From an uncultured Planctomycetales bacterium (GTDB lineage Bacteria > Planctomycetota > UBA1135), in NCBI GenBank assembly GCA_964591365.1, contig CAZQAP010000002.1, positions 1 to 42,597 of the forward strand: a stretch of 42,597 bases of DNA, given 5' to 3'. Below are positions 1,421-31,042 of the stretch, piece after piece. A program made the translations under genes and the position numbers. A model generated the notes under the pieces. That model worked only from the letters and a program-made list of their open reading frames with translations, was not told the DNA's origin and ran no database searches. Positions within the stretch are counted from its first letter, which is position 1. The number at the start of each line of letters is the position of its first letter.

Positions 1421-1797
1421 GGGCGAGCGTCACCCTGTAAGCCGGGTTCTGTGCCTCCCCGAAGGGAGCGGCGGCCATTCCTCTAGGACCGGCGTTGCCG
1501 CAGGCCTCCAACGCCCTACCCGGAGGTCGAACGGCGCGGGCCACGCCATCCCTCCCTATTCGGGCTTTCTCCCGGTGGGGTTTGCCCTGCCACGCCTGTC
1601 ACCAGGCGCGCGGTGAGCTCTTACCTCGCCGTTTCACCCTTGCCGAAGCGGGAAACCCGTCCCGGCGGTTTGTTTTCTGTGGCACTTTCCCTGGGGTTGC
1701 CCCCGGTGGGCGTTACCCACCACCGTGCCCTGTGGAGCCCGGACTTTCCTCGCGCGGATCGAAGATCCGCCCGCGGCCGCCCGGGTGACGCTCGCCC
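1420..1797 (-). ncRNA. rnpB: RNase P RNA, bacterial type A
   Basis: The minus strand carries the universally conserved P4 strands GAGGAAAGTCCGGGCTCCACAGGGCA and CACAGAACCCGGCTTACAGGG. It also has GGTAACGCC...GGGAAAGTGCCACAGAAA and GGTAAGAGC.CACCGCG blocks. The P1 helix pairs GGGCGAGCGTCACC (5' end, 1797 downward) with GGTGACGCTCGCCC (3' end, about 1421-1434). Confidence 0.92.
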
Positions 1798-6400: not shown

Positions 6401-6908
6401 TTCCCCGCAGTTGCAGGCCGCGCGGTTCAAGGATCCCCTCGAGTTGAGGAAACCGGGCTTCCAGGGGAACCTTCAGGCCCGCCTCGGTCCATCTCAATAT
6501 TCCCTTTTCAACCCGAAAGGGCAGGCGGGGCAGGGAGAGGGTTTCCCCGCCGCGCGGCAGGTGTTCGAGAAAAGCCCGGTCGAGTTCCAGGACCGGGGCG
6601 TGGAGAACGAGACTGCGAGGTTCGAGGAATCCGGGCGCCCCGGGGAGCAGGCCCGCTTGCAGGTCGAGCCGGTCCAGGACGAGGGAGAAGCCGTCCCCTC
6701 CCTGAAGGGAGAGGTTTTCGAGCACCATGCGCCCGGAACCCCAGCGGATGCGGGCTTTTCCGACTGTGGCGGTGATTCCGAGTTCGGGCGGGAGCGCCGC
6801 CTCGATCCGTCTCCGCACCAACTCGCGGGGAAGCGGGATGGGCACCCAGGCCGACCCCGCCAGCAGCAGCGAGAAACCGGCCCCGAAGAGGAGGCGGAAG
6901 GTGCGCAT
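3402..6908 (-). CDS. AsmA/TamB-like large envelope protein (1168 aa)
   Basis: ATG at 6908, 2 nt after the alr stop. It has an N-terminal signal anchor (MRTFRLLFGAGFSLLLAGSAW) and a long beta-rich, repetitive body. The C-terminus (LLRFRSDPAKNRGWIRIDEFVLDHPLLKVKGEGWIGLDGYL) resembles the AsmA-family C-terminal region. Family assignment is by resemblance only. Confidence 0.6.
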   Translation of the reverse strand: MRTFRLLFGAGFSLLLAGSAWVPIPLPRELVRRRIEAALPPELGITATVGKARIRWGSGRMVLENLSLQGGDGFSLVLDRLDLQAGLLPGAPGFLEPRSLVLHAPVLELDRAFLEHLPRGGETLSLPRLPFRVEKGILRWTEAGLKVPLEARFPQLEGILEPRGLQLRGTAGLPGGLSVRAWIASSQGFERWILDLAGEAAPLDLEGTGIDALATCRAESLSLRAHLEGGRNGLQAARVEGRLADLGGDFLGADLDCRGFHLDVSGSLTAAIEVHGGGTFAGIPLEVQGSFLRNPAGDLRLRLRGSTEPVPIDEPLLERIAKLDEGTAEAFRALELRGDLASGFVFRWDSRGPLRWVAHVPVRDFGSTYRGFLEDDGARPAFPYPIRGLAGDFTLAGLRALADLHGSMGAGRFTTRGSMEFGDGPAGIHLDVGIEGLPVDEEVHEAARGVPGLLEIWEDLGVPRGGRLDLDIFLRRPLLASRVEVSMDGLLSECQFLPAFLPVRSHLLQTRLRWRPGLARFQGEVEALGSRVAFNGHLAEAEGEDLPSVAVRITGADLQPKKEEWPILQDSLELPEIFSRLELSGPNHLEVFFRRPAGRPLPQIFARAGLAGDSLVLHIPHPSEGKMDLRISQLAGPVTVARHGAWSALAAPGITGTLAGNGFAASMVNVSGRGSRWNRFWGTVPDFDVSPELSDLAGILSPALGEDLAGLDLSGRLAFSASLDLEDPASLEGFLKLDPLELKSAAGETAATRLQGDVYFSGSGARSRLLELENPAGRLLLHDLSATPSGEETRIHARLETAGGIDVNDFFADLLSKDAWAAFQRIGFRGRVRSPGLGVDLRLPPDGQPSFSATGELGITGLRIEGPPRLRNGSGTLALRSFTWKGPEDFQAELTLSGGQVRLNDLRTSSFHGEINFDPREVVFHHFSADVLGGRILTHGKDPKGRDEEGEIRMGLTPQAPLRTLLHLEDLSLARMRDELNLGGSLGGRVGGRLDFRSASPDPLDYKGRGQLEIEGGVLGQVPVLSSMWRFAGVEPPQFQSGLLRFRSDPAKNRGWIRIDEFVLDHPLLKVKGEGWIGLDGYLRMKATVRTISFLTGLPLIGDIFDLFVEQDVRGPIERPVVSQRAFGKISGSSKEQHPFPLWLPDIPSGDWRISPVLPVEKVPRKRQ

Positions 6909-6910
6909 CG

Positions 6911-8080
6911 TCAGGAAGGAGGGGGGCTCGCCAGGGATGGCGCGGGGGACTGGAGGGGGGCGTCGAAGAAGACGCGCCGCACCCGGGATCCGACCGAGCA
7001 GGTGATCTCGTAGGGAATGGTTCCGGCGGCGCGGGCCAGTTCGAGCAAACCCAGCTCCTCTTCGCCGTCCCTGCCGACCAGGGTGGCGGTGTCGCCCACC
7101 CGGGTGCCGGGGACGTGGCCCACGTCGGCCGTGCAATAGTCCATGGAGATGGCGCCGACCAGCGGGCAGCGGCGCCCGCGGACGAGGACCGCCCCCCGGC
7201 CTTCCCGTCCCAGCCGGTAGGGAACGCCGTCGCAGTAGCCGATCGGGAGGGTGGCGATGCGGGTGGGCCGCAGTGCCTGCCACCCGCCCCCGTAACCCAC
7301 CCGGGTTCCCGCCTGAATGTCCTTCAGGAACACGATCTGGGTACGAAGCGAGAGGACCGGGCGCAGGCCGGGATCGACCGCCAGGCCTTCCGGAAGAAGG
7401 CCGTAGAGCGCCAGGCCGACCCGCACCGCGTCTCCATACGGCCGGTCCGCGGAGAAAAGCGCCGCGGAATTGGCGCAATGGACGGTGGGGAGGCCTTTTC
7501 CGGCATTCCTCCACCTGGCAAGGACCTGTTCGAAACAGCCCAGCTGGACCCGGGTGAAAGGGTCGGAAAAGCCCTGCGGAGAGGCGATGTGGGTCATGAT
7601 TCCCCTCAGCTCGAGCCAGGGTTCTGCCGCGAGGGTTTCGGCCACGCGCAGGGCGGCATCGGGCCGGACCCCCAGGCGGGTCATTCCGGTGTCGATCTTG
7701 AGGTGTACGCCCAGCTTGCGGCGCGCCTTGCGGGCCGCTGCGCCGAGCATCCGGACGCGGCTTTCGGAGTGGACCCCAACCTCGATCCGGTACCGGAGGA
7801 GGGCTGCGACCTCGGCGTCGATCACCGTTCCGAGCACCAGGACCGGGGTGCGGATTCCCGCCCGGCGGAGTTCCAGGGCCTCGCCGCTGTCGCCCACCCC
7901 GATGCGCTCCACGCTTTCCTCCTCGCAGATCCGGGCTATCCGGACCGCACCGTGGCCGTAGGCGTTGGCCTTGAGGACCGGCCACACCGCAGCCACCCCG
8001 GCCCGTTTGCGAACAAGGGCAAGATTGTGGCGGAACGCGGCCAGATCGATTTCCGCCCAGGCGCGCAGGCGGGAGGCCAT
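6911..8080 (-). CDS. alr: alanine racemase
   Basis: The PLP-lysine motif VLKANAYGHG is near the N-terminus. The C-terminal ISMDYCTADV and YEITCSVGSRVRR blocks are present. 389 aa. Confidence 0.93.
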   Translation of the reverse strand: MASRLRAWAEIDLAAFRHNLALVRKRAGVAAVWPVLKANAYGHGAVRIARICEEESVERIGVGDSGEALELRRAGIRTPVLVLGTVIDAEVAALLRYRIEVGVHSESRVRMLGAAARKARRKLGVHLKIDTGMTRLGVRPDAALRVAETLAAEPWLELRGIMTHIASPQGFSDPFTRVQLGCFEQVLARWRNAGKGLPTVHCANSAALFSADRPYGDAVRVGLALYGLLPEGLAVDPGLRPVLSLRTQIVFLKDIQAGTRVGYGGGWQALRPTRIATLPIGYCDGVPYRLGREGRGAVLVRGRRCPLVGAISMDYCTADVGHVPGTRVGDTATLVGRDGEEELGLLELARAAGTIPYEITCSVGSRVRRVFFDAPLQSPAPSLASPPPS

Positions 8081-8268
8081 GGAGGGGAATGTAACGGCTG
8101 GACCGGGGTGGGTTCCAGACTCCTGGGGCCCAATGGGGTGTCGGGAGATCTTTCGGGGTTCCCGTTCCGGGCGGGACCCGGGCCCCCGGTCCGCCCGGCA
8201 ACCTGGTCCCGCGGAGTCCCCACCAGGCGTAAATTCCCAAATAAAGGCCCATTTTCAGGGTTTAGGGT

Positions 8269-13980: not shown

Positions 13981-16254
13981 TCACGCCGGAGCCAGCCCTT
14001 CCTGCCCGGGCTGCACAAGGCCGCTTCCCGGTTCCGGTGCGGGAACCCGCTTGGCGGGATCGGATTGAGCGGGGGCCGGCGAGCCGGAGGGCGGGGCCTC
14101 GGGTTCCGGGCGCAGATTCTCCGGGGCGGTCCCCTCCATCAGGAGGACGATCTCGTGCGCGTGCAGGGTCTCGAAACGAAGCAGAGCCTGGGCCACCCGT
14201 TCCACTTCCTCCCGGTTCCGGGAAAGGACCTCCCGGGCCCGGCCATAGGCTTCTTTCACGAAGCGGGTCACCTCGTGATCGATCTCCTTCACCGAAGCTT
14301 CCGAGAAATCCTTTCCGAGCGAGAATTCGCTCCCCAGGAAATCGTTGCCGCGTTGATGGGCGAAGTTGATCGGGCCGAGATGATCGCTCATTCCCCATTC
14401 GGTGACCATCATGCGGGCGATCTGGGTGGCCCGCTGGATGTCGTTGGAGGCTCCCGAGGTGATGTCGTCGCAGAACATCTCTTCGGCCACACGCCCTCCG
14501 TAGAGGACCGTCAATTCGTCGAGGAGTTTCTTGCGGGTGAGATGCAGGTGTTCCTTCTCCGGAAGCTGCATGGTGGCCCCCAGGGACATCCCCCGCGGGA
14601 TGATGGTGACCTTGTGGACCGGCTCGGCGTTTTCGAGGGTCTGGCTGATCACGGTGTGCCCGGCCTCGTGGTAGGCGGTGATCGTCTTGTCCTCCAGGTC
14701 CATCACCCTCGATTTCTTCTGGCGGCCGAAACGGATCTTGTCACGGGCTTCCTCGAGGTCGTCCTGGGTGACGGCCAGGTGGTTCTTCATCACAGCCAGG
14801 ATGGCGGCTTCATTCACCAGCGCGGAAAGTTCGGCCCCGGAGAAGCCGGGCGTGCCGCGGGCGATCTCGGCCATGTCCAACCCGGGGGCCAGCTTCACTT
14901 CGCGGCTGTGGACCTTGAGGATCTGTTCGCGGCCGTTGATGTCCGGAAGATCGATGACGATTTCGCGGTCGAAACGGCCCGGCCGGAGAAGGGCGGGATC
15001 GAGGACGTCGGGCCGGTTGGTGGCGGCGACGACGATGATGCCTTCATCGGTGTCGAAGCCGTCCATTTCGACCAGGATGGCGTTCAGGGTCTGCTCGCGT
15101 TCGTCGTGGCCGCCGCCCATCCCGGAGCCGCGCTTGCGGCCGACGGCGTCGATCTCGTCCAGGAAGAGGATGCAGGGGGCCGAATCCTTGGCCTGTTTGA
15201 AGAGGTCCCGCACCCGGCTGGCGCCCACGCCGACGAACATCTCCACGAAGTCGGAGCCGCTGATGCTCAAGAAGGGGACATCGGCCTCGCCGGCGATCGC
15301 CTTGGCCAGCAGGGTCTTGCCCGTGCCGGGATTGCCGACCAGGAGGACCCCGCGCGGGATCCGGCCGCCCAGGCGCTGGAAACGGGTGGGGTTCTTCAGG
15401 AACTCGATGATCTCGCCGACTTCCTCCTTGGCGTCGTCGATGCCGGCAACGTCCTCGAAGGAGACCTTGGTCCGGTCCTCTTTGTTGTAGAGGACCGCCC
15501 TGGAGCGGCCGAAGGACATCAGGCCCTGGCCCTGGCCGCGCATCTGGCGCATGAAGATGAACCAGAAGAGCGCCAGGAAGAGAAGGATGGGTCCGAAGGT
15601 GCCCAGGAAATACATGAGGGCCGAATTGCCCTCCTCGACCACCAGGCCCTTGCCAAGGTCGAAGTATTCCTCCGTGACGTCGGCTTTCTTGCTTTTGAGC
15701 GTTTGCAGAAGCTGCCCCACGTCGGCGCCCGCAAGGAGGATCTCCCCGTAGTGGAGCCCCTGCTTGTCGGCATAGTCGAGAAACAGGCGCTGCTCGGTGG
15801 GGGCGGGGCCTGCCGCGGCCTTGTCTCCAGCGGCCCGGGTTGCCTTCAGGGCGTAGACGTGCACCGGATTCTTTTCGCCGCTCTCGACCGCCTGCAGGAT
15901 TTCTTCGGCTCCAAAGAGGCCTTCGGGCTTTTTGGCGAGCTGGTTCCGGATCCACTCGTTGGTTTCGGGACTCCGCGGCCAGGTCACGGTGAAGGATTCC
16001 TGGCCGGCTGGAACCACTCCCTTGCGGAAGCTGCCCGTGATCCGGCTGTTCTGATCCTGGGGCGCGGCCGTCTCGATCCCCCCCGTGTAGAGGTTGTAGC
16101 GGAAGGCGTCCACGCTGATCGTGCGGCGGGAGGGGGGGCTTCCGAAAATCACCAGGAGGAGCAAAAGGGCGGTCGTCAGCACCAGGAAGGGGCCGAAGGG
16201 CCGCTTCCCGGGCTTTTCTCCCGGACGGGCGGGTTTTCTGGGCGGTTCGTTCAT
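13981..16254 (-). CDS. ftsH: ATP-dependent zinc metalloprotease FtsH
   Basis: ATG at 16254 (MNEPPRK). Walker A GNPGTGKT, Walker [31 protein letters not shown] and zinc site HEAGH are present. There are two TM segments separated by about 185 aa. Confidence 0.95.
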
Positions 16255-21184: not shown

Positions 21185-21272
21185 CCGAAAAGCCGTCACG
21201 GACGCGGGCGGAGCTGGAAAGGGGAAGAGAAGGTCCTGGATCTTCGTGTGCCCGAACAGGGGGGAATTGACA

Positions 21273-21794
21273 ATGTCCGCAGAGGTCCAAGGAAGCGCCA
21301 CCCTTCCCGCCGAAGCCCATCTTTCCGAGCGGCTCGTCGGGGAAGCAACCCTCGCCGGCGGCCTGGGGGCCGTGGCGATCATGGTCTGGTTCCTGATCCT
21401 GGACACGATCCAGGGTCATCCGCTCTACACGCCGACCGTGCTGGGCACGGTCCTCTTCCACTCCGGCGAGGCCGTGTCGCTCGCCGATCTGCCGGTCTCG
21501 CTCGGCATGGTGGCGCTCTACACCATCCTCCACGGGGTGGGGTTTTGCTTCGTGGGCTACGTGGCCGTGCGGCTCTTCGTGGCCGCCGAACGCCATCCGG
21601 CCTGGCTCTTCGGCCTGCTGCTCTTCTTCATCTTCTTCTTCGCGGGCTTCCTGGCCTTCAACCTGCTCACCGACCTGCCGGTGTTCGAGGCGATCTCGGT
21701 CCCGGCGGTCCTGGGCGGCAACTTTCTGGCGGCCTTCTTCATGGGCCGCTACCTCTGGCGCCGCCACCCGCTCGACCTGCGCCAGCTCCTCTGA
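21273..21794 (+). CDS. hypothetical integral membrane protein (about 4 TM)
   Basis: ATG at 21273 after GGGGAATTGACA (alternative GTG at 21246). Hydrophobic segments include GGLGAVAIMVWFLIL, VALYTILHGVGFCFVGYVAV, LFGLLLFFIFFFAGFLAF and VLGGNFLAAFF. Confidence 0.55.
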   Translation: MSAEVQGSATLPAEAHLSERLVGEATLAGGLGAVAIMVWFLILDTIQGHPLYTPTVLGTVLFHSGEAVSLADLPVSLGMVALYTILHGVGFCFVGYVAVRLFVAAERHPAWLFGLLLFFIFFFAGFLAFNLLTDLPVFEAISVPAVLGGNFLAAFFMGRYLWRRHPLDLRQLL

Positions 21795-21839: not shown

Positions 21840-23558
21840 CTACAGCGTAAAGTTCAGGGTGCGGGCCACCGAGCAGAAGTCGAAGTTGCTGTTGATGACC
21901 ACCAGGGTGATCGGGAAGTGGTGGCCGAGAAGCTTGAGCGGCAGGGCGAAGGGGGGAACGGTTACATGCGCAATAGCCTTTCCGTTTTCATTGAGAATGC
22001 CTTGGAATCCGGAAGTGCCCGAAGGGGTTTTGCCGTTCCTGGAAGCATGGAAGTATTTGTCCCGTGTGAGGGGGATCAGAAGACCGTTGAGTGTGGTGGG
22101 CCCGGTTCCGTGGGCGGACAAGAGGATCTGATAACTGGCGCCCGCATCCACGTCTGGGAAGTCGATCGCGTAGTCGATCCTTCCGCCGGAGGTTACCGAA
22201 AGCACATCTGCGGAAGCGGTGAGGATCGGGTTGAAGGTATAGACGAATGCCGACCCCGCATGGGAAAGGCCGTTGGGGTGGGCAAGCGGGGCTCCGATGA
22301 TCAGGTCCGGAACTCCATCCCTGTCCACGTCTCTTGCTCTGGACACCGAAAACCCCAACGCGGCCCTGGCAGTCAACCCGTCGAGGCGGAATAGTTGAGT
22401 TCCTGTTGCCCCGGAGAAGACCAGGGTCGAACCCGCTTGGTAGATTCCGCTGGGGTGTGCAAATGGGGCTCCGACGATCACATCGCCCAAGCCATCGCCG
22501 TCGATATCTCCGGCTCCGTCAACGGAATGTCCCAGGTGGTCACTGCTGGCTTTGCCGTCCAATCGCCAGAGCTGGGCACCCGTTGCGCCTGAAAAGACAA
22601 AGGCCGAGCCTGCATACGTGAGGCCGTTGGGGGCTGCACCCGGGGAGCCGACGATCATGTCATCAAAGCCATCGCCGTCAACATCCCCTGCGCCTCCGAC
22701 GGAATACCCCAGCAAGTCAAAAGCTCTCAAGCCGTCGAAGCGGAGGAGCCGGGCTCCCGTTGCGCCGGAGAATACGAAAGCCGACCCTGCATTGGGGAGG
22801 CCATGAGGATGAGCACCATAGGCTCCCACGATCAGGTCGGGAACCCCATCGCCGTCTACGTCCCCTGCCCTGGCCACGGATTTCCCCAAAAAGGACTGTA
22901 TTCCTAAGCCATCGAACTGAAAGAGCTGCAATCCTGAGGCTCCGGAGAAAACAAAGGCGGAGCCCGCACTCCCATGTTTGTTGGGATCAGCATAGGGAGC
23001 GCCAACGATAAAATCATTGAAACCGTCTCCGTCCAGATCTCCAGCGCCGGCCACGGACCATCCCAACCGATCTCCGGCTCCAAGGCCGTTAAAGCGCCAG
23101 ATCTGCTCTCCGGTCGCCCCGGAGAAGACGAAGACGGAGCCCGAATACGGGAGACCGTTGGGATCCGCCTTGACGGCTCCAGCGATCAGGTCGTCGAATC
23201 CATCCCCATTCACGTCCCCGGCACCGGCCACGGACCATCCCAGGTAGTCCCCCGCGCCAAGGCCGTCGAAACGCCACAACTGTTCTCCGGTCGCTCCGGA
23301 GAAGACGAAGGCGGACCCTGCCGCGGAGAGGCCCTTGGGATCAGCCCCGGGAGCGCCGACGATCAAATCAACGAAACCGTCTCCGTCCACGTCTCCGGCG
23401 TCGGAGACAGAGAACCCGAATTCGTCATCCATCGCGAGGCCGTTGAAACGGCGTCCCAGGTCTTCGGTCCCACCCACCGTCTGGGCTGAAAGGGCGGGTG
23501 GAAGGAAAGCCTGGGCCAAACCTGCAAGGGCAAGTGACAGGAGAAATGGGGGATGCAT
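21840..23558 (-). CDS. secreted FG-GAP repeat protein, paralog P1 (7 blades + conserved C-terminal module)
   Basis: ATG 23558 with GGAG 7 nt upstream. Signal peptide MHPPFLLSLALAGLAQAFLPPALSAQ/TVGG. It has seven blades with DxDxDG loops. The C-terminal module starts at TFNPIL. Confidence 0.9.
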   Translation of the reverse strand: MHPPFLLSLALAGLAQAFLPPALSAQTVGGTEDLGRRFNGLAMDDEFGFSVSDAGDVDGDGFVDLIVGAPGADPKGLSAAGSAFVFSGATGEQLWRFDGLGAGDYLGWSVAGAGDVNGDGFDDLIAGAVKADPNGLPYSGSVFVFSGATGEQIWRFNGLGAGDRLGWSVAGAGDLDGDGFNDFIVGAPYADPNKHGSAGSAFVFSGASGLQLFQFDGLGIQSFLGKSVARAGDVDGDGVPDLIVGAYGAHPHGLPNAGSAFVFSGATGARLLRFDGLRAFDLLGYSVGGAGDVDGDGFDDMIVGSPGAAPNGLTYAGSAFVFSGATGAQLWRLDGKASSDHLGHSVDGAGDIDGDGLGDVIVGAPFAHPSGIYQAGSTLVFSGATGTQLFRLDGLTARAALGFSVSRARDVDRDGVPDLIIGAPLAHPNGLSHAGSAFVYTFNPILTASADVLSVTSGGRIDYAIDFPDVDAGASYQILLSAHGTGPTTLNGLLIPLTRDKYFHASRNGKTPSGTSGFQGILNENGKAIAHVTVPPFALPLKLLGHHFPITLVVINSNFDFCSVARTLNFTL

Positions 23559-23849
23559 TGAGGGTCTCCTCGTTCAACCGGAACCAGGCAAACAAACTGG
23601 CTTCTCAAAGATTTCCGCGTTCGTTGGCCCAAACGGTTCAAGCGCAAGAAACCCCACTATCTGCCAAAACCTGCCCGCAAAAACGCCAGGAGGCCCCAAA
23701 AACCATGCCTGATCACTGCCCGCCCCGGCCGCTCGGCCCATCGGCCTCCACGTCGCCGGGAACCGGGAGGGAATTGCCGGGCAGCCCATGCCAGACCGGC
23801 GAGGAAAAGGGAAAGAGTGGTGGCTGTTTTCATCCTGTCGAACCATTGC

Positions 23850-23884
23850 GAAAATCCCTCCCCGGCCTGCCGGGCCGGGGAGGG
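23850..23884 (-). terminator. intrinsic terminator after paralog P2
   Basis: Perfect 12-bp stem CCCTCCCCGGCC / GGCCGGGGAGGG (23856-23884) with a 5-nt loop. On the minus strand it is followed by ATTTTCG. Confidence 0.6.
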
Positions 23885-23924
23885 GCAGCGGTTTTTCGGG
23901 CCTTTTTCGGGCTCCGGGGGCCTT

Positions 23925-25454
23925 CTAGGGCGTGAAGACGACCTTGCGCGCCACGGACGCGAACTCGAGGCTCTTGTCGGCCGCGGCGAGGAAGATCGTG
24001 CGGCCGATCAGCTTGGCGGGGAGACTCCCGGGGGCCGCTGCGATCCCGGCCGTCGCCTGTCCTTGGGCGTCGAGGCTGCCCTGGAACCCGGAGGCCTGCG
24101 GCGGGGTGCGCCCCTTCCGGGAAGAGCGGAACAGCCGGTCGGGCGTGAGCGGAACGAGGAGATCCCGGAGCATGACGGGTCCCGTGCCGTGGGCCGACAA
24201 CAGGATCCGGTATCTCGCTCCCGCATCCACGTCGGGGAAGTCCAGCTTGTAGTCGATCGGTCCTCCCGCGGCGATCGAAAGGGTCTCCGCGGAAGCCCGC
24301 AGGATCGGATTGAAGCTCAAGACCAGCGCCGAGCCGGCGTCGGTGCGGCCGCCGGGATCGGAACCGACCGCGCCGGTGACGAAGTCGGCCAGCCCGTCGC
24401 CGTCCAGGTCTCCGGTGCGGGCGACCGAGAACCCCAGCAGGTCGCCGGCCCCCTCGCCGTGGAAGCGGTAGAGCGGGAGTCCGCCGGCTCCGGAAAAGAC
24501 GAAGACCGAACCGGCGTCCGTGCGCGCGAACGGATCGGCGCGCATGGCCCCCACGATCAGGTCGGGGACGCCGTCCGCATCGAGGTCGCCGACTCCGGCT
24601 CCGGAGAAACCGAGCTGATCGCCCGGGTTCTGCCCGTCGAAGCGGAGGATCCGGTTTCCGGTGGCCCCCGAAAAAACGAAGGCCGAACCGTAATTGCCCT
24701 GGGGACCGGGGTCGGTGCGGGGGGCGCCCGCCAGGATGTCTCCGACCCCGTCGCCGTCGAGGTCGCCCGCGGCGGCCACGAAGCTGCCCAGCATTCCGCC
24801 GGCGACGCCGCCATGGATGACGAGGATCTTGTTGCCGGTCGCTCCGGAGAAGACCAGAACGGAACCGGCGTCCACGAGGCCGCTGGGGTCGGCGCGCCGG
24901 GCGCCTACGAGCAGGTCGGGCACGCCGTCTCCGTCGAGATCGCCGATGCCGGAGACGGAGACGCCCAGGCGCTCGTGGACCGACTGGCCGTCGAAGCGGA
25001 AGAGCAGGCTGCCCGTGGCCCCGGAATAGACGAAGGCCGAACCGGCATCCTCGAGTCCGCCGGGATCCGCCAGCACGGCCCCGGCGATCAGGTCGGGGAT
25101 GCCGTCGCCATCCACGTCGCCGGCCGAGGCCACCGAGAAACCGAGCAGGTCGGTCGGGGACTGGCCGTCGATCCGGAGGATGCGGTTTCCGGTGGCCACC
25201 GAAACCACCTGGATGGAGCCGGAAGCCAGGCCGTTGGAGGAGGCCTGCGGCGCTCCCAGGATCAGGTCGCCGATGCCGTCCGCGTCCACGTCGCCGGCGG
25301 CGGAGACCGCGTAGCCCAGAGAGTCGCCCGCAGCGAAGCCGTCGAAGCGCGCGCTCTGGTCGAAGGTTCCGCCCACCGTCTGCGCGGCGAGCGGGGAAGA
25401 AAGCAGGGTCAGGACGAGCCCGACGGAAAGGTCCAGCAAGGCTGGGGTATTCAT
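23925..25454 (-). CDS. secreted FG-GAP repeat protein, paralog P2 (6 blades + conserved C-terminal module)
   Basis: ATG 25454 with GGAGACGAC upstream. Signal peptide MNTPALLDLSVGLVLTLLSSPLAAQ/TVGG. It has six blades. 509 aa, about one blade shorter than its siblings. Confidence 0.88.
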   Translation of the reverse strand: MNTPALLDLSVGLVLTLLSSPLAAQTVGGTFDQSARFDGFAAGDSLGYAVSAAGDVDADGIGDLILGAPQASSNGLASGSIQVVSVATGNRILRIDGQSPTDLLGFSVASAGDVDGDGIPDLIAGAVLADPGGLEDAGSAFVYSGATGSLLFRFDGQSVHERLGVSVSGIGDLDGDGVPDLLVGARRADPSGLVDAGSVLVFSGATGNKILVIHGGVAGGMLGSFVAAAGDLDGDGVGDILAGAPRTDPGPQGNYGSAFVFSGATGNRILRFDGQNPGDQLGFSGAGVGDLDADGVPDLIVGAMRADPFARTDAGSVFVFSGAGGLPLYRFHGEGAGDLLGFSVARTGDLDGDGLADFVTGAVGSDPGGRTDAGSALVLSFNPILRASAETLSIAAGGPIDYKLDFPDVDAGARYRILLSAHGTGPVMLRDLLVPLTPDRLFRSSRKGRTPPQASGFQGSLDAQGQATAGIAAAPGSLPAKLIGRTIFLAAADKSLEFASVARKVVFTP

Positions 25455-25674
25455 GGTCGTCTCCGTTTCGAAGGGTCGGTTCCGTCCGATTCCAGGGGGC
25501 GAGGAACATGGCGCGGATTCCGGGAAAGGAGTCCGCGCGAACGGTGCAGAATGGGTCAAGGGGGCGCGCCGCGGGTTCGATTCCGCCCGCTCTCCGTGCG
25601 AAAAGGAACAAAGCCCCCGGCGGAGACCGGAAGCTTGCAAGGAACGGGCATCACGAACAGGAGGGAGGCAAATA

Positions 25675-25690
25675 CCGTTCCACTGAACGG
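25675..25690 (-). terminator. weak candidate terminator after paralog P3
   Basis: The minus strand reads CCGTTC-AGTG-GAACGG followed by TATTTG. The stem is short. Confidence 0.3.
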
Positions 25691-25715
25691 GGAATCTTTC
25701 CCTGCGGCCCGTCCG

Positions 25716-27404
25716 CTACGGCAGGAACGAAAGCCGCCGGGCGACGGAGGCGAAGTCGAGCTTGTCGTTGATGGCGGCGAGGAAGAAGGTGCGGCCGATC
25801 AGCTTGGCGGGAAGGGTGCCGGGCGCGGCGGTGAAACGGGCCGCGGAGCGGCCCTGGGGATCCAGGATTCCCTGGAAACCGATCCCCTGGGGAGGGGTGT
25901 TCCCCTCGAGGGAGGCCCGGAAGAAGCGGTCGTTCGTCAGAGGGATCGAAAGGCCCTTGAAGAGGGTCGGACCGGTCCCGGTCGCGGAAAGAAGGAGCTC
26001 GTATTCCCGGCCGGCATCCACGTCGGGGAAATCGATGGAGTAATCGACCGCTCCCCCCGCAGCGATCGAGAAGGCTTCCGCCGAGGCGCTCAAAATCGGG
26101 TTGTAAGTGAAGACGGAGGCGGAGCCGGTTTCGCGAAAGCCGCCCTCTTCGGACAGGGGCGCCCCGATGAAGAGTTCGGGAGAACCGTCTCCGTCCAGGT
26201 CGCCGGCATCCACAACCGAGGAGCCGAAGCTGGCGCCCGGCTTCGAGCCATCGAGGCGAACGATGAGTTCCCCGGTGGCTCCAGAGAAGAGGAAAGCCGA
26301 CCCTGCATCCGTGCGGCCTTCCGGATCCGTTCCGTTGGCGCCGATGAGGATGTCGGGCACCCCGTCGCCGTCCGCATCCCCCGTGGCCGCCACGGAGGAG
26401 CCGAAGAAATCGTTGATCCCCGCTCCATCGAAACGGCGGATCACGGCCCCGCTCGCCCCCGAGAAGACGAAGACCGAACCCGCATTGACGATCCCCTGCG
26501 GGTCGGAGCCGCGGGCCGCGACGAGAAGGTCGGGAACGCCGTCGCCGTCCAGATCGCCGGCGGGGGCCAGGGAACTGCCCGTCAGGTCGCTGGCGTGCGC
26601 GCCGTCGAAGCGGAAGAGCTGGGCGCCGGTGGCACCGGAGAAGACGAAGGCCGACCCGGCGAAGGTGAGACCGCCGGGGTCAGCGCTGAAGGCCCCGATG
26701 AGCAGGTCATCGTGTCCGTCGCCGTCCACGTCGCCGGCCGTGGAGACGGCGTTGCCCAGGAAATCGCCGGGCTCCCCGCCGTCGAAGCGGAGGATCCGTC
26801 TTCCGGTGGCCCCCGAAAAGACGAACGCCGACCCCGCCCCCGTCCTGCCGTTCGGGGAGGCGCCCTGGGCGCCCACGACCAGGTCGGGCACGCCGTCGCC
26901 GTTGACGTCGCCGGCCGGGGCCAGCGCCGTGCCCAGTCCTTCCCAGGCCGCCGTGCCGTCCAGGCGGAACAACAGTTTCCCGGTGGCGCCGGAGACCAGA
27001 AGGACGGAACCGGCATGATCCAGGCCGTTGGGTGCCGAGGGGGGGCTGCCGATGGCCGCGTCTTCCCGCCCGTCTCCGTCCAGGTCGCCGACCAAGGCGA
27101 CGGCACGGCCGAACTCCCCGTGATTCTTGTTCCCAACGCTCCAGAGAAGGTTTCCGCTGGCGCCGGAAAGGGCCAGGATCCTGGCCTTGGGATAGGCGTA
27201 AAGGGCTCCCACGATCAGATCCCCGACGCCGTCCCCGTCGAGGTCGCCGCCCCCGGCGACGGGGCATCCGAAACGTTCCCCTCCGTCCGTTCCCTCGAAG
27301 TGGAACATCGTGTCGAAGGTCCCGCCGTTCAACTGAGCCGGAAGGCGTGAGGAGAGCAGGACCAGGAAAAGGCCGGCCGGAAGGAGGCAGGGAAGACGGA
27401 TCAT
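25716..27404 (-). CDS. secreted FG-GAP repeat protein, paralog P3 (7 blades + conserved C-terminal module)
   Basis: ATG 27404, only 10 nt after the P4 stop. Signal peptide MIRLPCLLPAGLFLVLLSSRLPAQ/LNGG. 562 aa. Confidence 0.9.
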   Translation of the reverse strand: MIRLPCLLPAGLFLVLLSSRLPAQLNGGTFDTMFHFEGTDGGERFGCPVAGGGDLDGDGVGDLIVGALYAYPKARILALSGASGNLLWSVGNKNHGEFGRAVALVGDLDGDGREDAAIGSPPSAPNGLDHAGSVLLVSGATGKLLFRLDGTAAWEGLGTALAPAGDVNGDGVPDLVVGAQGASPNGRTGAGSAFVFSGATGRRILRFDGGEPGDFLGNAVSTAGDVDGDGHDDLLIGAFSADPGGLTFAGSAFVFSGATGAQLFRFDGAHASDLTGSSLAPAGDLDGDGVPDLLVAARGSDPQGIVNAGSVFVFSGASGAVIRRFDGAGINDFFGSSVAATGDADGDGVPDILIGANGTDPEGRTDAGSAFLFSGATGELIVRLDGSKPGASFGSSVVDAGDLDGDGSPELFIGAPLSEEGGFRETGSASVFTYNPILSASAEAFSIAAGGAVDYSIDFPDVDAGREYELLLSATGTGPTLFKGLSIPLTNDRFFRASLEGNTPPQGIGFQGILDPQGRSAARFTAAPGTLPAKLIGRTFFLAAINDKLDFASVARRLSFLP

Positions 27405-27414
27405 GGTTTGCGGG

Positions 27415-29121
27415 TCACGGAAGAAAGGCGAGCTTGCGGGCCACCGAAGACAGGTCGAGGCGCTTGTCCACGGCGGAGAGGTAGAGGGTCCGTCCCGCCA
27501 GCTTGGCGGGCAGCCCTCCGGGAACGGCGGTGAAGCGGGCGGCAGCTCTTCCCAGGGCGTCGAGCCGTCCCTGGAAACCCCGGGCCTGGGGCGGGGTGCG
27601 GCCCTTCAGCGAGGCGAGGAAGAAACGGTCCCGGGTCAGGGGGACCGCAAGGCCCCGCAGGCCGGTGGGGCCGGTTCCACGGAAGGACAAGAGAATGCGG
27701 TAGCCGGAGAAGGCTTCCCTTTCGGAGAAATCGGCCGCGTAGCCGATGGTTCCCCCCGATGCGATCGATAGCTCCCCGGCGGAAGCCTCCAGGATGGGAT
27801 TGAAGGTGAAGACGAAGGCGGCACCCCGGTCCTGGTACAGAGAGGTTTCCTCGAAAGGGGCGCCCAGGATCAGGTCCGCCCGGCCGTCTCCATTCACGTC
27901 GCCCGCTCCCGAAACCGAGATCCCGAGCCCGCTCTGGTGGCTCAATCCGTCGAAGCGGAAGAGAAGGGCCCCCGTCGCTCCGGAGAAAAGGAAGGCGGAA
28001 TTGCCGGGTGCCGGCCGGTATTCACCGGAGAAGGTGGCCCCGACCAGGATGTCGGGAACCCCGTCGCCGTCCACGTCCCCCGGACCGGCGACCGAACGCC
28101 CGAAGGAAGGGGTGTCCGCATCGCCGTCGAACCGGAAGATCTGGCTGCCGGTTGCCCCGGAGAAGGCGAAGACGGTGCCAGGATCGTCGCGGGGAGCGGA
28201 AGCCGTGCGGTTGCCCACAAGAAGATCCCCGAGGCCGTCCCCGTCCAGATCCCCCGCCCCGGCGACGGAGGTCCCGAATCGAAAACCATCCGAGGGCCCG
28301 TTCAACCGCAGAAGAAGGTTGCCGGTGGCGCCCGAATAGACGAAGACGGATCCCGCAACGACATGGTTGTTGAGGTAGGTATCGGGAGTGCCCACAAGGA
28401 AGTCCGCGAAACCATCTCCATCGGTGTCCCCGGCATCGGCCACCGCCTTCCCGAAGGTCTGGACCGGATCCGAGCCGTCGATCCGGTAGAGGAGAGCCCC
28501 GCTCCCGCCCGAGAAGACGAAGACGGAACCGGCTTGGGAAACTCCGTTTACGGTCGTATTGACCGCCCCGACGACCAGTTCGGCCAGACCGTCGCCGTCC
28601 ATGTCGCCGGCCAGGGCGACGAAATTGCCCAGGAGGTCCTCGTCACTTGCGCCGTCGAAACGATGGATCTGAAGGCCCGTTGCTCCCGAAAAGACGAATG
28701 CCGAACCGGCGTTGTAATGTCCGTTCGGATCGGAATGCGGCGCTCCCACGAAGATGTCGGGAACCCTGTCCCCGTCCACATCCTTGCCTCCCGAGACGGA
28801 ATATCCCATCAAATCGAAGGACTCGAATCCGTCGAATTGGTAGATCAGGTTCCCGGTCCGGCCGGAATAGACATAAGCGGAACCGGTGTTGTTCACACCG
28901 TTTGGCTGGGCGAAGAGAACGCCGACGACCAGATCGTCCCGGCCGTCCTGATCGACGTCCCCGGCCGTGGAAACCGCGTATCCCAGTTCGTCGCCCCGAA
29001 AGAAGGCATCGAAGCGGAAGCGCTGCTCGAGGTCTCCGCCGACGAGCTGGGCGGGATGGAGCGGAGAGAACCCGGTCAGGGCCAGCCCGGCGATCGCAGG
29101 GAGAAGGAAGAATGTTTTCAT
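27415..29121 (-). CDS. secreted FG-GAP repeat protein, paralog P4 (7 blades + conserved C-terminal module)
   Basis: ATG 29121 (MKTFFLLPAIAGLALTGFSPLHPAQ/LVGG). 568 aa. Several of its blades are more diverged, for example KDVDGDRVPD and GDTDGDGFAD. Confidence 0.88.
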   Translation of the reverse strand: MKTFFLLPAIAGLALTGFSPLHPAQLVGGDLEQRFRFDAFFRGDELGYAVSTAGDVDQDGRDDLVVGVLFAQPNGVNNTGSAYVYSGRTGNLIYQFDGFESFDLMGYSVSGGKDVDGDRVPDIFVGAPHSDPNGHYNAGSAFVFSGATGLQIHRFDGASDEDLLGNFVALAGDMDGDGLAELVVGAVNTTVNGVSQAGSVFVFSGGSGALLYRIDGSDPVQTFGKAVADAGDTDGDGFADFLVGTPDTYLNNHVVAGSVFVYSGATGNLLLRLNGPSDGFRFGTSVAGAGDLDGDGLGDLLVGNRTASAPRDDPGTVFAFSGATGSQIFRFDGDADTPSFGRSVAGPGDVDGDGVPDILVGATFSGEYRPAPGNSAFLFSGATGALLFRFDGLSHQSGLGISVSGAGDVNGDGRADLILGAPFEETSLYQDRGAAFVFTFNPILEASAGELSIASGGTIGYAADFSEREAFSGYRILLSFRGTGPTGLRGLAVPLTRDRFFLASLKGRTPPQARGFQGRLDALGRAAARFTAVPGGLPAKLAGRTLYLSAVDKRLDLSSVARKLAFLP

Positions 29122-29332
29122 GGGTTCCGCCCCTTTCGAGGGGGGCGGGGTCGTTCGATTCCGCTCACCGCCCGTGCGGAAAACAACAGAGGGAAGGGGG
29201 GACCGGCCGGAATCCGGAGCTGACACTCCCTCTCCCGCTTCATGCCGGCGGGTTCATCGACGAGGGTGGCAAAAACCGTGCCGGATCTTCGGCCGCGCGG
29301 GCGGTCCTTCCTCCTCCGGCCGGGCCTTCCTA

Positions 29333-31042
29333 TCAGGGTTGGAAGACGAGCCGGCGGACGACGGAAGAAAAGTCGAGGCTCTTGTTGACCGCGGCGAGGA
29401 AGAGCGTGCGCCCGGCGAGGCGGGCGGGCAGCCCCCCCGGCGCGGCGGTGAAATGGGCCAGGGCCTGCCCTTGGGGATCCAGGATGCCCTGGAAGCCGAC
29501 TCCTTGGGAAGGCGTGTCGCCGTGGGTGGAAGCGGTGAAGAACTTGTCCTTCGTCAGGGGGACCAGGAGGCCCTTGAGAAGGGTCGGGCCGGTTCCGGTC
29601 GCGGAAAGAAGGATCCCGTATTTCAAACCTGCATCCTTCGCAGGAAAGTGGATCGCGTAGTCGATGGTCCCGCCGGCGGAAATGGAAAAGATTCCGCCCG
29701 AGGCGATGAGAATCGGATTGAAGGTGAAGACGAAGGCGGAGCCCGCGAAGAGGAGGCTCCCCGGGCTGGCGAAGGGGGCGCCCAGGACCAGGTCGCCGAG
29801 GCCGTCGCCGTCCGCATCGCCCGCGCCGGAGACCGCGGTCCCCAGGAAGTCGGAGGCCGCCTGGCCGTCGATCTGGAGAACCATGCCTCCCGTCGCTCCG
29901 GAAACCAGGAAGGCGGAGCCGGCGTTGCTGCGCCCGCCCGGAGCGGCGAAGGGGGCCCCGGCGGCCAGGTCGGGCACACCGTCCCCGTCCGCATCCCCGG
30001 TCCCCGCAACCGACCGGCCCAGGGCGTCTCCGCCGTGCAGGCCGTTGAACCGGAGCACCTGGGCGCCCGTCGCGCCCGAGAAGACGAAGGCCGCGCCCGA
30101 GTCGGTCTTGCCATTGGAGTCGGCGAGCGGGGCGCCGGCGGCCAGGTCGGGGACGCCGTCCCCGTCCACGTCCCCGGCAGGGGCCACCGAGAAGCCGAAC
30201 TCGTCGTGGGCACCCTGGCCGTCGAACTGGAAGATCAACGATCCACCGGCTCCGGAAAGGACGAAGGCGGACCCGGCATCCTTGAGGCCGCCGGGGTCGG
30301 CAAACGGAGCGGCGACGATCAGGTCCGCCAACCCGTCGCCGTCCACGTCCCCCGCCCCGGCCACGGCCCGCCCCAGATTGTCGGAGGCCGCCTGGCCCCG
30401 GAACACGAGAAGCTGCAGGCCGGTGGCGCCGGAAAAGACCCGCGCCGACCCGGCATCGGTGCGGCCGTTGGGATCGCGGAAGGGAACCCCGGCGATCAGG
30501 TCGGGAACGCCGTCGCCGTCGACGTCGCCCGCGCCTGCCACGGAAAACCCCAGTTCGTCATGGGAGGCCTGTCCGTCGAAACGCCAGATCAGGCTGCCAG
30601 TGGCCCCCGAGAAGACGAAGGCCGATCCGGAATCCTTGTTGCCGTTGGGATCCGCGAAAGGAGCCCCGACGATCAGATCGTCGAAACCGTCGCCGTCGAC
30701 GTCGCCCGCGCCGGCGACGGAAGAGCCGAGCGCATCGTTGGAGGCCGGGCCGTCGAGGCGCAGAAGCTGCGCTCCAGTGGCTCCCGAATAGACGTAGGCG
30801 GCGCCCGCGTCGGCGTGGAGGTTGGGGTTGGCCAGCGGTGCCCCGACGATCACGTCCGCGAAACCGTCGCCATCCACGTCCCCGGCCGCTGCCGCCGAAG
30901 AGCCGAGTTCGTCGATGGATTCCTGGCCGTTGAAACGGAACCTCTGCTCCACGATCCCGCCCACGGTCTGGGCGGAGAGGAAGGCCGGAAGAAGAACCGC
31001 AGCAAGCGCTGCCAGGGGAAGGGGAAGGATGAGGGTTCGCAT
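29333..31042 (-). CDS. secreted FG-GAP repeat protein, paralog P5 (7 blades + conserved C-terminal module)
   Basis: ATG 31042 preceded by GAGGGACC. Signal peptide MRTLILPLPLAALAAVLLPAFLSAQ/TVGG. 569 aa. Confidence 0.9.
   Translation of the reverse strand: MRTLILPLPLAALAAVLLPAFLSAQTVGGIVEQRFRFNGQESIDELGSSAAAAGDVDGDGFADVIVGAPLANPNLHADAGAAYVYSGATGAQLLRLDGPASNDALGSSVAGAGDVDGDGFDDLIVGAPFADPNGNKDSGSAFVFSGATGSLIWRFDGQASHDELGFSVAGAGDVDGDGVPDLIAGVPFRDPNGRTDAGSARVFSGATGLQLLVFRGQAASDNLGRAVAGAGDVDGDGLADLIVAAPFADPGGLKDAGSAFVLSGAGGSLIFQFDGQGAHDEFGFSVAPAGDVDGDGVPDLAAGAPLADSNGKTDSGAAFVFSGATGAQVLRFNGLHGGDALGRSVAGTGDADGDGVPDLAAGAPFAAPGGRSNAGSAFLVSGATGGMVLQIDGQAASDFLGTAVSGAGDADGDGLGDLVLGAPFASPGSLLFAGSAFVFTFNPILIASGGIFSISAGGTIDYAIHFPAKDAGLKYGILLSATGTGPTLLKGLLVPLTKDKFFTASTHGDTPSQGVGFQGILDPQGQALAHFTAAPGGLPARLAGRTLFLAAVNKSLDFSSVVRRLVFQP

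Follow-up and report, generated by a model that had tools for sequence, protein, structure and literature searches.

Seven-bladed integrin-type propellers that carry a Ca2+ site in every blade and lack a transmembrane helix have been described in bacteria, with examples from the Proteobacteria and Cyanobacteria (Chouhan et al. 2011, PLoS One 6:e25069, PMC3192720). The proteins reported here, P1 to P5 from an uncultured Planctomycetales bacterium, resemble them in having a row of seven FG-GAP/Cage repeats of ~60 aa, each blade with its own Ca2+-binding motif. The two groups also share loops that are more regular than those of human integrins and a predicted closure of blade 7 by a strand from the N-terminus, and neither has a transmembrane helix. 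Double propellers are occasional in that group, and a 997-aa relative with 13 DxDxDG motifs (L011_g3) appears to be one here. In contrast, the 2011 study describes neither a C-terminal Ig-like module nor tandem arrays, and no expansion in the Planctomycetota.

In metazoans, integrin alpha forms an obligate heterodimer with a beta subunit, which has a beta-I/VWA-like domain. The propellers of P1 to P5 have their best match, in both structure and sequence, in the alpha headpiece (alpha-V, alpha-5, alpha-IIb). In both, Ca hairpins lie opposite the ligand-binding loops, which in our proteins form the presumed binding face, and the propeller runs directly into an Ig-like sandwich, which in P1 to P5 stands where integrin has its thigh domain. 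However, P1 to P5 have Ca sites in all seven blades where integrin has 3-4, and they have no calf domains, transmembrane helix or cytoplasmic GFFKR-type motif. Psathyrella velutina lectin (PVL) and tachylectin-2 are secreted, stand-alone multivalent propellers, as P1 to P5 are predicted to be, although these lectins lack a C-terminal Ig-like domain. PVL has DxDxDG Ca loops and inter-blade sugar pockets with GW in loop D-A' (PMC8023676). More generally, VCBS/FG-GAP propellers typically serve carbohydrate recognition or protein-protein interaction, and blade number varies within lineages (PMC9218822).

Organization of the array

The array occupies positions 21840-31042 of the window, by which we mean the whole 42,597-nucleotide stretch of DNA that was analysed. 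Five head-to-tail ORFs were found on the minus strand, in exact agreement with the sizes and outer coordinates that a sequence-only reading of this DNA had given for five same-strand paralogues:

21840-23558, minus strand: P1, 572 aa; predicted signal peptide, 7 FG-GAP blades and C-terminal Ig-like module
23925-25454, minus strand: P2, 509 aa; predicted signal peptide, six blades and C-terminal Ig-like module
25716-27404, minus strand: P3, 562 aa; predicted signal peptide, 7 FG-GAP blades and C-terminal Ig-like module
27415-29121, minus strand: P4, 568 aa; predicted signal peptide, 7 FG-GAP blades and C-terminal Ig-like module
29333-31042, minus strand: P5, 569 aa; predicted signal peptide (residues 1-24), 7 FG-GAP blades and Ig-like module

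Pairwise identity among the five proteins was 46-58% over nearly the full length, and all of them were acidic, with net charges of -24 to -36. Because the spacer between the P4 stop codon and P3 is only 10 nt, these two genes are probably co-transcribed. GC3 of P1 was 0.67, and the overall GC of positions 28001-29000, which are covered by P4, was 0.64, below that of the segments over P2, P3 and P5. As the sequence-only reading had proposed, the genes adjoining the array are those of ordinary metabolism and housekeeping (FtsH, a DAC-domain protein, a CorC/CBS protein, an amidohydrolase, a thiolase, two cyclophilins, an enoyl-CoA hydratase and an aconitase).

P1 to P5 are integrin-type propellers

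Pfam searches matched PF01839 (FG-GAP) in all five proteins, with seven repeats per protein and six in P2 (E 4e-35 to 3e-55); the best score was that of P5 (seven repeats, E 3e-55). The DxDxDG motif recurred with a period of 59 aa in P1 to P5, and the full Dx[DN]x[DN]Gxx[DE] motif was present in 33 of the 34 blades. Blade 2 of P4 has a noncanonical loop in which DVDGDR replaces DxDxDG. The blade consensus included GDVDGDGxxDL and AGSAFVFSGATG, and so the calcium loop and strand that had been described for each blade were recovered. By their motifs these loops would be expected to hold calcium. The earlier count of six or seven ~59-aa blades can be refined, as seven is the number in four of the proteins and the six blades of P2 reflect an exact 59-aa deletion of a single blade relative to P0162, a near-identical homologue of 568 aa from another assembly.

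An AlphaFold model (AF2) of P5 (pLDDT 91.9, pTM 0.87) consisted of seven four-stranded blades, a closing strand at the N-terminus and a sandwich at the C-terminus; closure of the ring was read from model confidence and topology. When this model was compared with the PDB by Foldseek, each of the best 50 matches was an integrin alpha headpiece (E ~1e-25, TM 0.57-0.60, probability 1.0). Similarly, a sequence profile searched against PDB sequences gave 62 matches, of which the 60 listed were integrin alpha, with alpha-V at E 3e-29.

We conclude that P1 to P5 are integrin-alpha-type FG-GAP propellers of the bacterial kind, with a Ca motif per repeat and no transmembrane helix. Identity with metazoan integrin alpha was ruled out because the tail matched only generic Ig-like folds and no integrin thigh was present among the best 50 Foldseek matches of the tail alone; calf match, transmembrane helix and cytoplasmic motif were likewise absent. 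The Integrin_alpha2 leg-domain family had no match in P1 to P5 at E<=0.01, and no gene for a VWA or integrin-beta domain was found in the window or in the related loci L010-L016. At the same threshold the Pfam scan of P1 to P5 returned nothing beyond FG-GAP-type families, and no enzyme domain was recognisable with Pfam or NCBIfam, which bears out the claim that no enzymatic or toxin domain is attached.

Predicted export and the search for an anchor

Each protein begins with a hydrophobic segment followed by A-Q and (T/L)-x-G-G, the arrangement that had been read as a Sec signal peptide. The P5 segment is as follows:

30971-31042, minus strand: predicted signal peptide of P5, MRTLILPLPLAALAAVLLPAFLSA followed by QTVGG; hydrophobic h-region, A at -1

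The N-terminal 23-25 codons of P1 to P4 are its counterparts. The -3 residue is an allowed Leu in P2, P3 and P5 and His in P4. Across 48 homologues A24 was nearly invariant and Q25 was invariant, and in the P5 model residues 1-27 had a pLDDT of <50 and were followed by a strand at residues 30-38. These features point to export of P1 to P5 and cleavage between A and Q.

No lipobox (L-x-x-C) was found in P1 to P5, in which the sole early Cys is residue 6 of P3, and the NCBIfam sorting-signal models, with T9SS CTD, PEP-CTERM and LPXTG among those sought, gave no match at E<=0.01. There was also no convincing membrane-spanning segment past the signal peptide in any of the five proteins. The only segments above the hydrophobicity cut-off were at ~210 in P2 and ~428-436 in P5 (scores 1.6-1.76), and those of P5 are strands in the AF2 model. 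Thus, the proteins have no recognisable membrane anchor, lipobox or sortase, PEP-CTERM or T9SS-like tail, as had been claimed, and neither a surface anchor nor a secretion system could be assigned to them.

A conserved module at the extreme C-terminus

The tail common to the five proteins was located by tblastn:

21843-22235, minus strand: C-terminal module of P1
23928-24314, minus strand: C-terminal module of P2
25719-26105, minus strand: C-terminal module of P3
27418-27804, minus strand: C-terminal module of P4
29336-29722, minus strand: C-terminal module of P5, 129 aa

The sequence-only reading was right that all five proteins share this module, although its length is 129-131 aa rather than ~125. 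The modules start with [FY]NPIL and have a mean column identity of 74% across P1 to P5. Their termini (…SVAR.L.F.P/L) contain no hydrophobic helix, and P1 has a distinct variant (…INSNFDF.SVAR.L.FTL). Modelled alone, the P5 module gave a pLDDT of 92.7 and only generic Ig-like matches in Foldseek. It had no match in Pfam at E<=10 and none in NCBIfam or among PDB sequences. A profile search with the module recovered 1956 clusters at 50% identity. In each of the 150 relatives checked the module was the last part of the protein, and it was also found behind SBBP and FG-GAP_2 propellers. This distribution suggests a separate, shuffled module.

The module resembles the T9SS CTD (Por_Secre_tail) in being a small, strictly C-terminal beta-sandwich common to proteins with different propellers. 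However, it is longer (129 aa versus about 80-100), it has no NCBIfam sorting match, and the cargo seen consists only of propellers. To our knowledge, T9SS is not known in the Planctomycetota. One reading, which we hold to be doubtful, is that the sandwich is a C-terminal sorting or attachment domain, specific to this lineage of Planctomycetota, that would bring FG-GAP, FG-GAP_2 and SBBP propellers to the surface, the arrays being a birth-and-death surface-recognition repertoire. In that case the sandwich may be a functional analogue of the T9SS CTD that is unrelated in sequence. As a secondary reading, the propeller and Ig-like tail together may be the prokaryotic equivalent of the propeller and thigh that make up the headpiece of integrin alpha.

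Related arrays and gene turnover

Thousands of homologues are public, automatically named "integrin alpha" or "FG-GAP repeat protein", and those with organism labels come almost entirely from Planctomycetota metagenome-assembled genomes (MAGs). Copy number varied across relatives from 1 to at least 7, and tandem arrays contained 2 to at least 7 copies. A locus syntenic with that of the window, L011, has at least 7 copies, with 4-nt overlaps between genes, and includes orthologues of P5 (L011_g1, 82% identical), P4 (L011_g5, 79%) and P3 (L011_g7, 75%). Another locus, L010, has 7 complete genes on 14 kb, and its contig opens with a fragment of the module, whereas L008, L016 and L007 have 4, 3 and 2 copies. 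Comparison of the window array with L011 revealed gene gain and loss at the syntenic locus.

A recent, self-contained expansion was not supported by this comparison, because three of the five paralogues have orthologues that are 75-82% identical while the paralogues are only ~50% identical to one another. Related MAGs also carry arrays of this family, and the window array is thus not unique. Gene contexts differed among the loci, and no conserved neighbour that would indicate a pathway was found. Nor can the array be called an undescribed system: propellers of this type with a Ca site per blade were reported in bacteria in 2011 (PMC3192720), and the databases already annotate its homologues by the thousand.

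Variation is focused opposite the calcium loops

P1 to P5 and their relatives vary most in two loops of the blade, 2-3 and 4-1, which form the face away from the Ca loops. Entropy across the 48 homologues was 2.2 bits in the 2-3 loop and 2.0 bits in the 4-1 loop, compared with 0.8-0.9 bits in the Ca loop, 3-4 turn and inner strands. Among the paralogues, the top-face loops of P4 are the most diverged. Loops generally outvary strands in any fold, and the pattern is to that extent weaker than it looks; even so, the variable loops do stand apart from the Ca loops and 3-4 turns, which are just as exposed. No conserved residue cluster was found in the 48 homologues beyond the scaffold and Ca motifs.

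Orthologue dN/dS values were 0.25-0.32, and in P5 the value was 0.33 for the top loops and 0.13 for the bottom loops. Thus, the array genes are maintained under purifying selection and the top face evolves faster. As dN/dS of the top loops was <1, there was no sign of positive diversifying selection in them, only of relaxed constraint. The suggestion of diversified recognition is consistent with the focus of variation on the 2-3 and 4-1 loops.

The sugar-pocket GW motif of PVL and tachylectin corresponds to the residue after the loop Gly (PMC8023676). At this position of the 4-1 loop, W, F, Y or H was found in 6/7 blades of P1, two of which have GW, and in 4/6 of P2, 0/7 of P3, 2/7 of P4 and 2/7 of P5. 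Most blades of P3 to P5 thus lack a GW-type residue, in contrast to the lectins.

Proposed function and alternative explanations

The array most likely encodes a repertoire of binding proteins that are exported and are not enzymes, because the loops of the face opposite the Ca sites differ most among the paralogues and in the wider family. We lean, by a small balance of probability, towards a tandem multigene family of soluble, Sec-exported binders with related specificities. P1 to P5 would be soluble after export, either periplasmic or released. Cleavage of the signal peptide between A and Q would leave a strand (QxVGG…RF.G) at the new N-terminus, and this strand would be the last one needed to close the propeller. 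One Ca2+ per blade would sit in the Dx[DN]x[DN]GxxD hairpin of strands 1-2, all on one face, stiffening a regular scaffold, and ligand would bind the opposite face, built by the 2-3 and 4-1 loops, with specificities that differ among the members. By VCBS/FG-GAP precedent the ligands would most plausibly be glycans or other surface polymers, although protein ligands are possible, and the proteins are perhaps lectin-like. The C-terminal sandwich may act as a stalk or in attachment, oligomerisation or sorting. The array would evolve by birth and death via unequal recombination, with genes and single blades gained and lost.

A highly regular, acidic scaffold would also suit structural parts of the cell envelope or a surface layer, in which the paralogues would assemble, perhaps as hetero-oligomers, through the C-terminal sandwich. 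The similar sizes of the paralogues, their partly operonic arrangement (the P4-P3 spacer and the L011 overlaps) and the conserved, always terminal module are consistent with such parts. However, a copy number that varies so widely across relatives is unlike a structure of fixed stoichiometry, conservation is lowest in the top-face loops, and no anchor motif was found; we consider this explanation unlikely. Still less probable is a role as extracytoplasmic sensors in ECF sigma-factor signalling, the propeller and tail acting with or as an anti-sigma-like partner. Two relatives, P0091 (849 aa) and P0125 (835 aa, within the three-gene array of L016), have N-terminal Sigma70_r2/r4, a hydrophobic segment and a linker in-frame with propeller and tail. 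However, these fusions keep an internal Met and a signal-peptide-like segment and may be read-through calls of adjoining ORFs, most family members stand alone, and there is no sigma or anti-sigma gene in or beside the window array or at the syntenic locus.

Catalytic propellers are known within the VCBS supercluster (PMC9218822, PMC8023676), and some singleton homologues lie near GH106, GH172 or esterase genes, as might be expected if the paralogues were enzymes acting on different polysaccharides in the manner of family 11 rhamnogalacturonan lyases (PL11) or aldos-2-ulose dehydratase. However, integrins account for all 50 listed structural matches and for every one of the 60 PDB sequence matches listed out of 62, no CAZyme-type Pfam match was found, and the would-be active-site face is the most variable one; we give enzymes very little weight. 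PL11 propellers are eight-bladed with a conserved active site; P1 to P5 have seven blades (six in P2). The birth-and-death dynamics and lineage-specific expansions of the arrays would fit kin recognition or anti-predator or anti-phage decoys, as speculated for repetitive VCBS propellers. This self/non-self explanation seems to us the most remote of those considered: the orthologues are well conserved under purifying selection, PADLOC anti-phage models gave 0 matches for P1 to P5 and the adjoining 182-aa protein, no toxin, effector or defence domain was found in P1 to P5 by Pfam, NCBIfam or PADLOC, and there is no mobile-element context around the array.

The array is real but only moderately novel, because the family is large and already annotated. 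Current views are not overturned; the propeller class and its occurrence in bacteria were already known. Beyond the 2011 description are the recurrent arrays with gene gain and loss, the variation opposite the Ca sites, and a tail that is always C-terminal in the relatives checked. We found no paper in the literature on this propeller and tail family or any function assigned to it. The nearly 2000 diverse examples of the unnamed C-terminal domain make it worth a Pfam entry, and for integrin evolution the family adds a large prokaryotic group with an integrin-type propeller directly before an Ig-like domain. If the array is a repertoire of binders, it would be a compact library, diversified in nature, of binding scaffolds that Ca2+ stabilises, from an uncultured marine or sediment lineage, and it could shed light on the recognition of particles, algal glycans or other cells by such Planctomycetota.

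Organization of the array and its repeats

Positions 21840–31042 are filled by five ORFs that lie head to tail on the minus strand:

P1: 21840–23558, minus strand, ORF of 572 aa
P2: 23925–25454, minus strand, ORF of 509 aa
P3: 25716–27404, minus strand, ORF of 562 aa
P4: 27415–29121, minus strand, ORF of 568 aa
P5: 29333–31042, minus strand, ORF of 569 aa

The start of each ORF was taken as the Met preceding a hydrophobic signal-like segment, and these starts match the N-termini of close homologs. Over their full length the five proteins share 46–58% pairwise identity. A Pfam scan matched FG-GAP (PF01839) in all five, with seven repeats per protein except for six in P2 (E 4e-35 to 3e-55), and FG-GAP_2 and FG-GAP_3 matched as well. 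The DxDxDG motifs recur with a strict period of 59 residues, and the complete integrin-type calcium motif Dx[DN]x[DN]Gxx[DE] is present in 33 of the 34 blades. Each protein ends in a module of 129–131 residues (the tail) that starts with [FY]NPIL and has a mean column identity of 74%. The sequence-only reading described the array correctly wherever its description could be checked, coordinates and sizes included.

An assembly artifact was ruled out as the source of the array because the paralogs share no more than about 50% identity; this does not extend to a blade deletion in P2, which could be a repeat collapse. Compared with the 568-aa protein P0162 from another assembly, P2 is near-identical in the in-register stretches and is missing exactly one 59-aa blade. 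Forms of 506–511 aa are also found in L010, an array locus in a related MAG. The alignment with P0162 points either to a very recent in-frame deletion by recombination between blade repeats or to collapse of the repeat during assembly.

Blades within P1 share 59% identity and those within P5 56%, as high as the identity between paralogs, in which same-index blades are 49% identical and different-index blades 46%. These similar values indicate that the blades are consensus-like and that blade orthology is barely resolvable. Recent blade amplification or concerted evolution was also considered, and constraint and gene conversion both fit these identities. Composition is uneven across the array: GC3 is 0.67 in P1 compared with 0.83–0.84 in P2, P3 and P5, and the overall GC of the segment covering the P4 region is lower (0.64). 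A difference in expression level, age or origin may account for this unevenness.

Predicted fold of the propeller and the tail

An AlphaFold2 model of P5 was built from a 48-sequence alignment (pLDDT 91.9, pTM 0.87). It consists of a disordered signal peptide (residues 1–27), an N-terminal strand (30–38), seven four-stranded blades and a C-terminal beta-sandwich. In a Foldseek search with this model, the best 50 PDB matches were all integrin alpha headpieces (alpha-V, alpha-5, alpha-4 and alpha-IIb), with E values of about 1e-25 and TM scores of 0.57–0.60. Integrin alpha-V was also the top match of the family sequence profile (E 3e-29). The earlier interpretation of the proteins as integrin-alpha-like FG-GAP propellers is sound, and our confidence in the architecture and fold is high.

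When modeled by itself the tail was also predicted well (pLDDT 92.7). Its fold resembles generic Ig-like domains only, namely antibody and TCR V domains and the pilus chaperone FimC, along with viral Ig, FN3 or BACON-like domains; these PDB and viral fold matches have TM scores of about 0.4–0.5 and E values of 2e-4 or worse. The tail matched no Pfam family even at E<=10, and a comparison with PDB sequences gave nothing meaningful. Because the similarity is only generic, we did not adopt the designation of thigh, Big or T9SS domain. The tail sits where the thigh domain sits in integrin alpha, a likeness of placement.

Variation is concentrated in two loop sets

Among 48 homologs, entropy was 2.2 bits in the loops between strands 2 and 3 and 2.0 bits in the 4-1 loops, whereas the calcium loop, the 3-4 turn and strands 2 and 3 had values of 0.8–0.9 bits. 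Propeller topology places both of these variable sets on the same face, with the calcium loops on the opposite one. The dN/dS values of the tested orthologs were 0.25–0.32, so purifying selection acts on every copy tested. In the P5 ortholog pair, the variable loops had a dN/dS of 0.33, compared with 0.13 for the calcium-face loops. The residue following the Gly of loop 4-1, which occupies the pocket-forming position, is aromatic or His in six of seven blades of P1 (GW twice) and in four of six blades of P2, compared with none of seven in P3 and two of seven in both P4 and P5.

Export signals

The N-termini of P1–P5 contain zero or one basic residue, a hydrophobic core, Ala at −1 and Gln at +1. 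Position −3 is occupied by Leu in three of them (P2, P3 and P5) and by His in P4. Q25 is conserved in all of 48 homologs, A24 and G28/G29 are each conserved in at least 90%, and the AQxVGG motif is also present in distant family members. From these features we infer that P1–P5 are exported by Sec and cleaved at A|Q. The proposed lack of a membrane anchor, lipobox or catalogued sorting tail held up. P1–P5 contain no lipobox and match no NCBIfam sorting-signal model, and beyond the signal peptide the hydrophobicity scan revealed no segment that convincingly spans the membrane; in P2 and P5 a few windows were barely above the cut-off.

Genomic surroundings and transcription

Housekeeping genes, which the sequence-only reading called ordinary metabolism, flank the array on both sides:

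One flank: phosphoglucomutase, DAC-domain protein, FtsH, TPR/YfiO-like protein, CorC/CBS protein, amidohydrolase and a 182-aa hydrophobic protein
Other flank: thiolase, two cyclophilins, enoyl-CoA hydratase, aconitase, MerR/TipAS regulator and isocitrate/isopropylmalate dehydrogenase

Among the array surroundings in the window we found no gene of a secretion system, sigma factor, VWA protein, mobile element or defense system, and a PADLOC search returned no matches. The strongly hydrophobic 182-aa protein (21246–21794, plus strand) is encoded convergently with P1, facing its 3′ end; it has no Pfam or PADLOC match and nothing ties it to the array. Elsewhere in the window, a full-length bacterial class A RNase P RNA (1422–1792, minus strand; 301.5 bits, E 7e-98) could be used as a phylogenetic marker of the source organism. 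In a stop-free frame of about 1619 aa (3402–8261, minus strand), codon-position GC resembles that of coding sequence and Pfam gave no family at E<=1e-4; the frame may encode a very large uncharacterized protein.

The spacer between P4 and P3 is only 10 nt, and therefore these two genes are probably cotranscribed; the remaining spacers are 211–366 nt. Alignment of the four intergenic/upstream regions (mean identity 40%) did not reveal a common regulatory motif, and scans for promoters (1 vs 0.3 expected) and terminators (15 vs 11.2 expected) were at the shuffled background. A short similar stretch (…CACGG..G.GAGCGGAATCGAAC…) is common to the regions upstream of P2 (25455–25715) and P4 (29122–29332) and absent upstream of P1 (23559–23924) and P5; it may be a leftover of the duplication unit.

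Arrays in relatives are recurrent and variable

Tandem arrays of the family recur in related MAGs, and the comparison called for earlier showed that copy number varies from singletons, which lie in unrelated contexts, to at least seven (L010 and L011). The 14-kb contig of L010 carries seven complete paralogs that are 70–88% identical and a tail-module fragment at its start; L008 has four copies (64–74% identical), L016 three and L007 two. L011 is syntenic with the window on the same side (thiolase, two cyclophilins, enoyl-CoA hydratase, second thiolase and aconitase) and contains at least seven copies, its contig stopping inside the array. Ortholog identities between the two loci are 82% (P5 and L011_g1), 79% (P4 and g5) and 75% (P3 and g7). 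The extra genes intercalated in L011 include a 276-aa truncated copy and a 997-aa protein with 13 DxDxDG motifs, which we read as a putative double propeller. Adjacent L011 genes overlap by 4 nt (ATGA-type) at 8146–8149 and 14899–14902, suggesting translational coupling of some paralog pairs.

The paralogs in the window are about 50% identical with dS of about 0.9–1.4, whereas dS between the window and L011 genomes is about 0.4–0.5, indicating that the paralogs diverged far before these genomes split. The array is both old and dynamic.

The family is large and its tail is found on other propellers

Searching 1.84 billion cluster representatives with a profile built from the five tails gave 1956 matching proteins at E<=1e-3, 671 of them at E<=1e-10, nearly all of 500–600 aa with the module at the C-terminus. 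In 147 of the 150 best matches the module reached to within 5 residues of the C-terminus, and in all 150 to within 20. When the tail alone was used in word-index searches, no more than 7 and 11 proteins came up, mainly fragments, and it took the exhaustive profile search to reveal the family. The full-length profile matched at least 7564 proteins at E<=1e-20; named matches were called ‘integrin alpha’, ‘FG-GAP repeat protein’ or ‘hypothetical protein’ and came from Planctomycetota MAGs, with one labeled Nitrospinota. All nine loci recovered from a species-representative genome set were in Planctomycetota MAGs. These counts and labels indicate that the family is large, public and auto-annotated. 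Our literature searches found no paper characterizing it.

The tail also ends proteins with other propellers, of the SBBP type (P0013 and P0014) and of the FG-GAP_2 type (P0016 and P0022), and the P0014 tail is very near the P1 variant. This distribution shows the tail to be a shuffled module, shared between unrelated propeller classes. The body of P0013 and P0014 consists of DUF7948 and SBBP beta-propeller repeats.

Two members, P0091 and P0125, have N-terminal ECF sigma domains fused in frame. P0125, an 835-aa ORF inside the three-gene array of L016 (3240–5747), starts with ECF sigma-70 regions 2 and 4, continues with a hydrophobic segment and a linker, and then has an internal Met with a signal-peptide-like segment, the FG-GAP propeller and the family C-terminal module. 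This ORF, like P0091, could be a true sigma–sensor fusion or two genes read through.

Relationship to known propellers and possible function

Chouhan et al. (2011) described bacterial proteins with seven integrin-type FG-GAP/Cage repeats and a calcium motif in every blade, with loops more regular than those of human integrins, no TM helix and occasionally two tandem propellers, and assigned them no function (PMC3192720). P1–P5 are members of this ‘one Ca site per blade’ class and of the FG-GAP/integrin-type propeller superfamily. Integrin-like propellers belong to the VCBS supercluster (Pereira and Lupas, 2021, 2022; PMC8023676, PMC9218822), whose members typically recognize carbohydrates or proteins, and highly repetitive propellers arise repeatedly with blade number variable within lineages (PMC9218822). 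The window proteins fit this class well. P1–P5 are not integrin alpha subunits, as they lack the leg domains, TM helix and cytoplasmic motif and no beta partner was seen nearby. Nor do they carry a catalogued sorting signal or defense signature.

The best-supported reading, which we favor by a small measure, is that P1–P5 are exported binding proteins, non-enzymatic and rigidified by Ca2+, which together make up a multigene repertoire. Their scaffold and calcium face are conserved and the opposite face is variable, differing between paralogs; the common Ig-like module could act as a stalk, attachment point, oligomerization element or sorting signal. Glycans, bound in a lectin-like manner, are the most plausible ligand class because of family precedent and the partial GW signature; the sugar pocket of PVL and tachylectin-2 is built from the GW motif of loop D-A' (PMC8023676). 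Glycans specifically are nonetheless a tentative and rather doubtful assignment.

Less likely, the proteins could instead have a structural role in the envelope or act as enzymes, or they could constitute a self-recognition repertoire. Another unlikely rival is an ECF-linked sensor, of the kind that a true fusion in L016 would represent.

The sequence-only reading had not recognized the array as a described system. The array is less novel than that reading supposed, since the propeller class is published (PMC3192720) and the family is abundant and annotated. The modest new points are the recurrent arrays, the polarized variation and an unnamed, strictly C-terminal Ig-like domain. Also beyond the literature are an array that is old and dynamic, change at the level of single blades, shuffling of the tail and in-frame fusions to ECF sigma domains.
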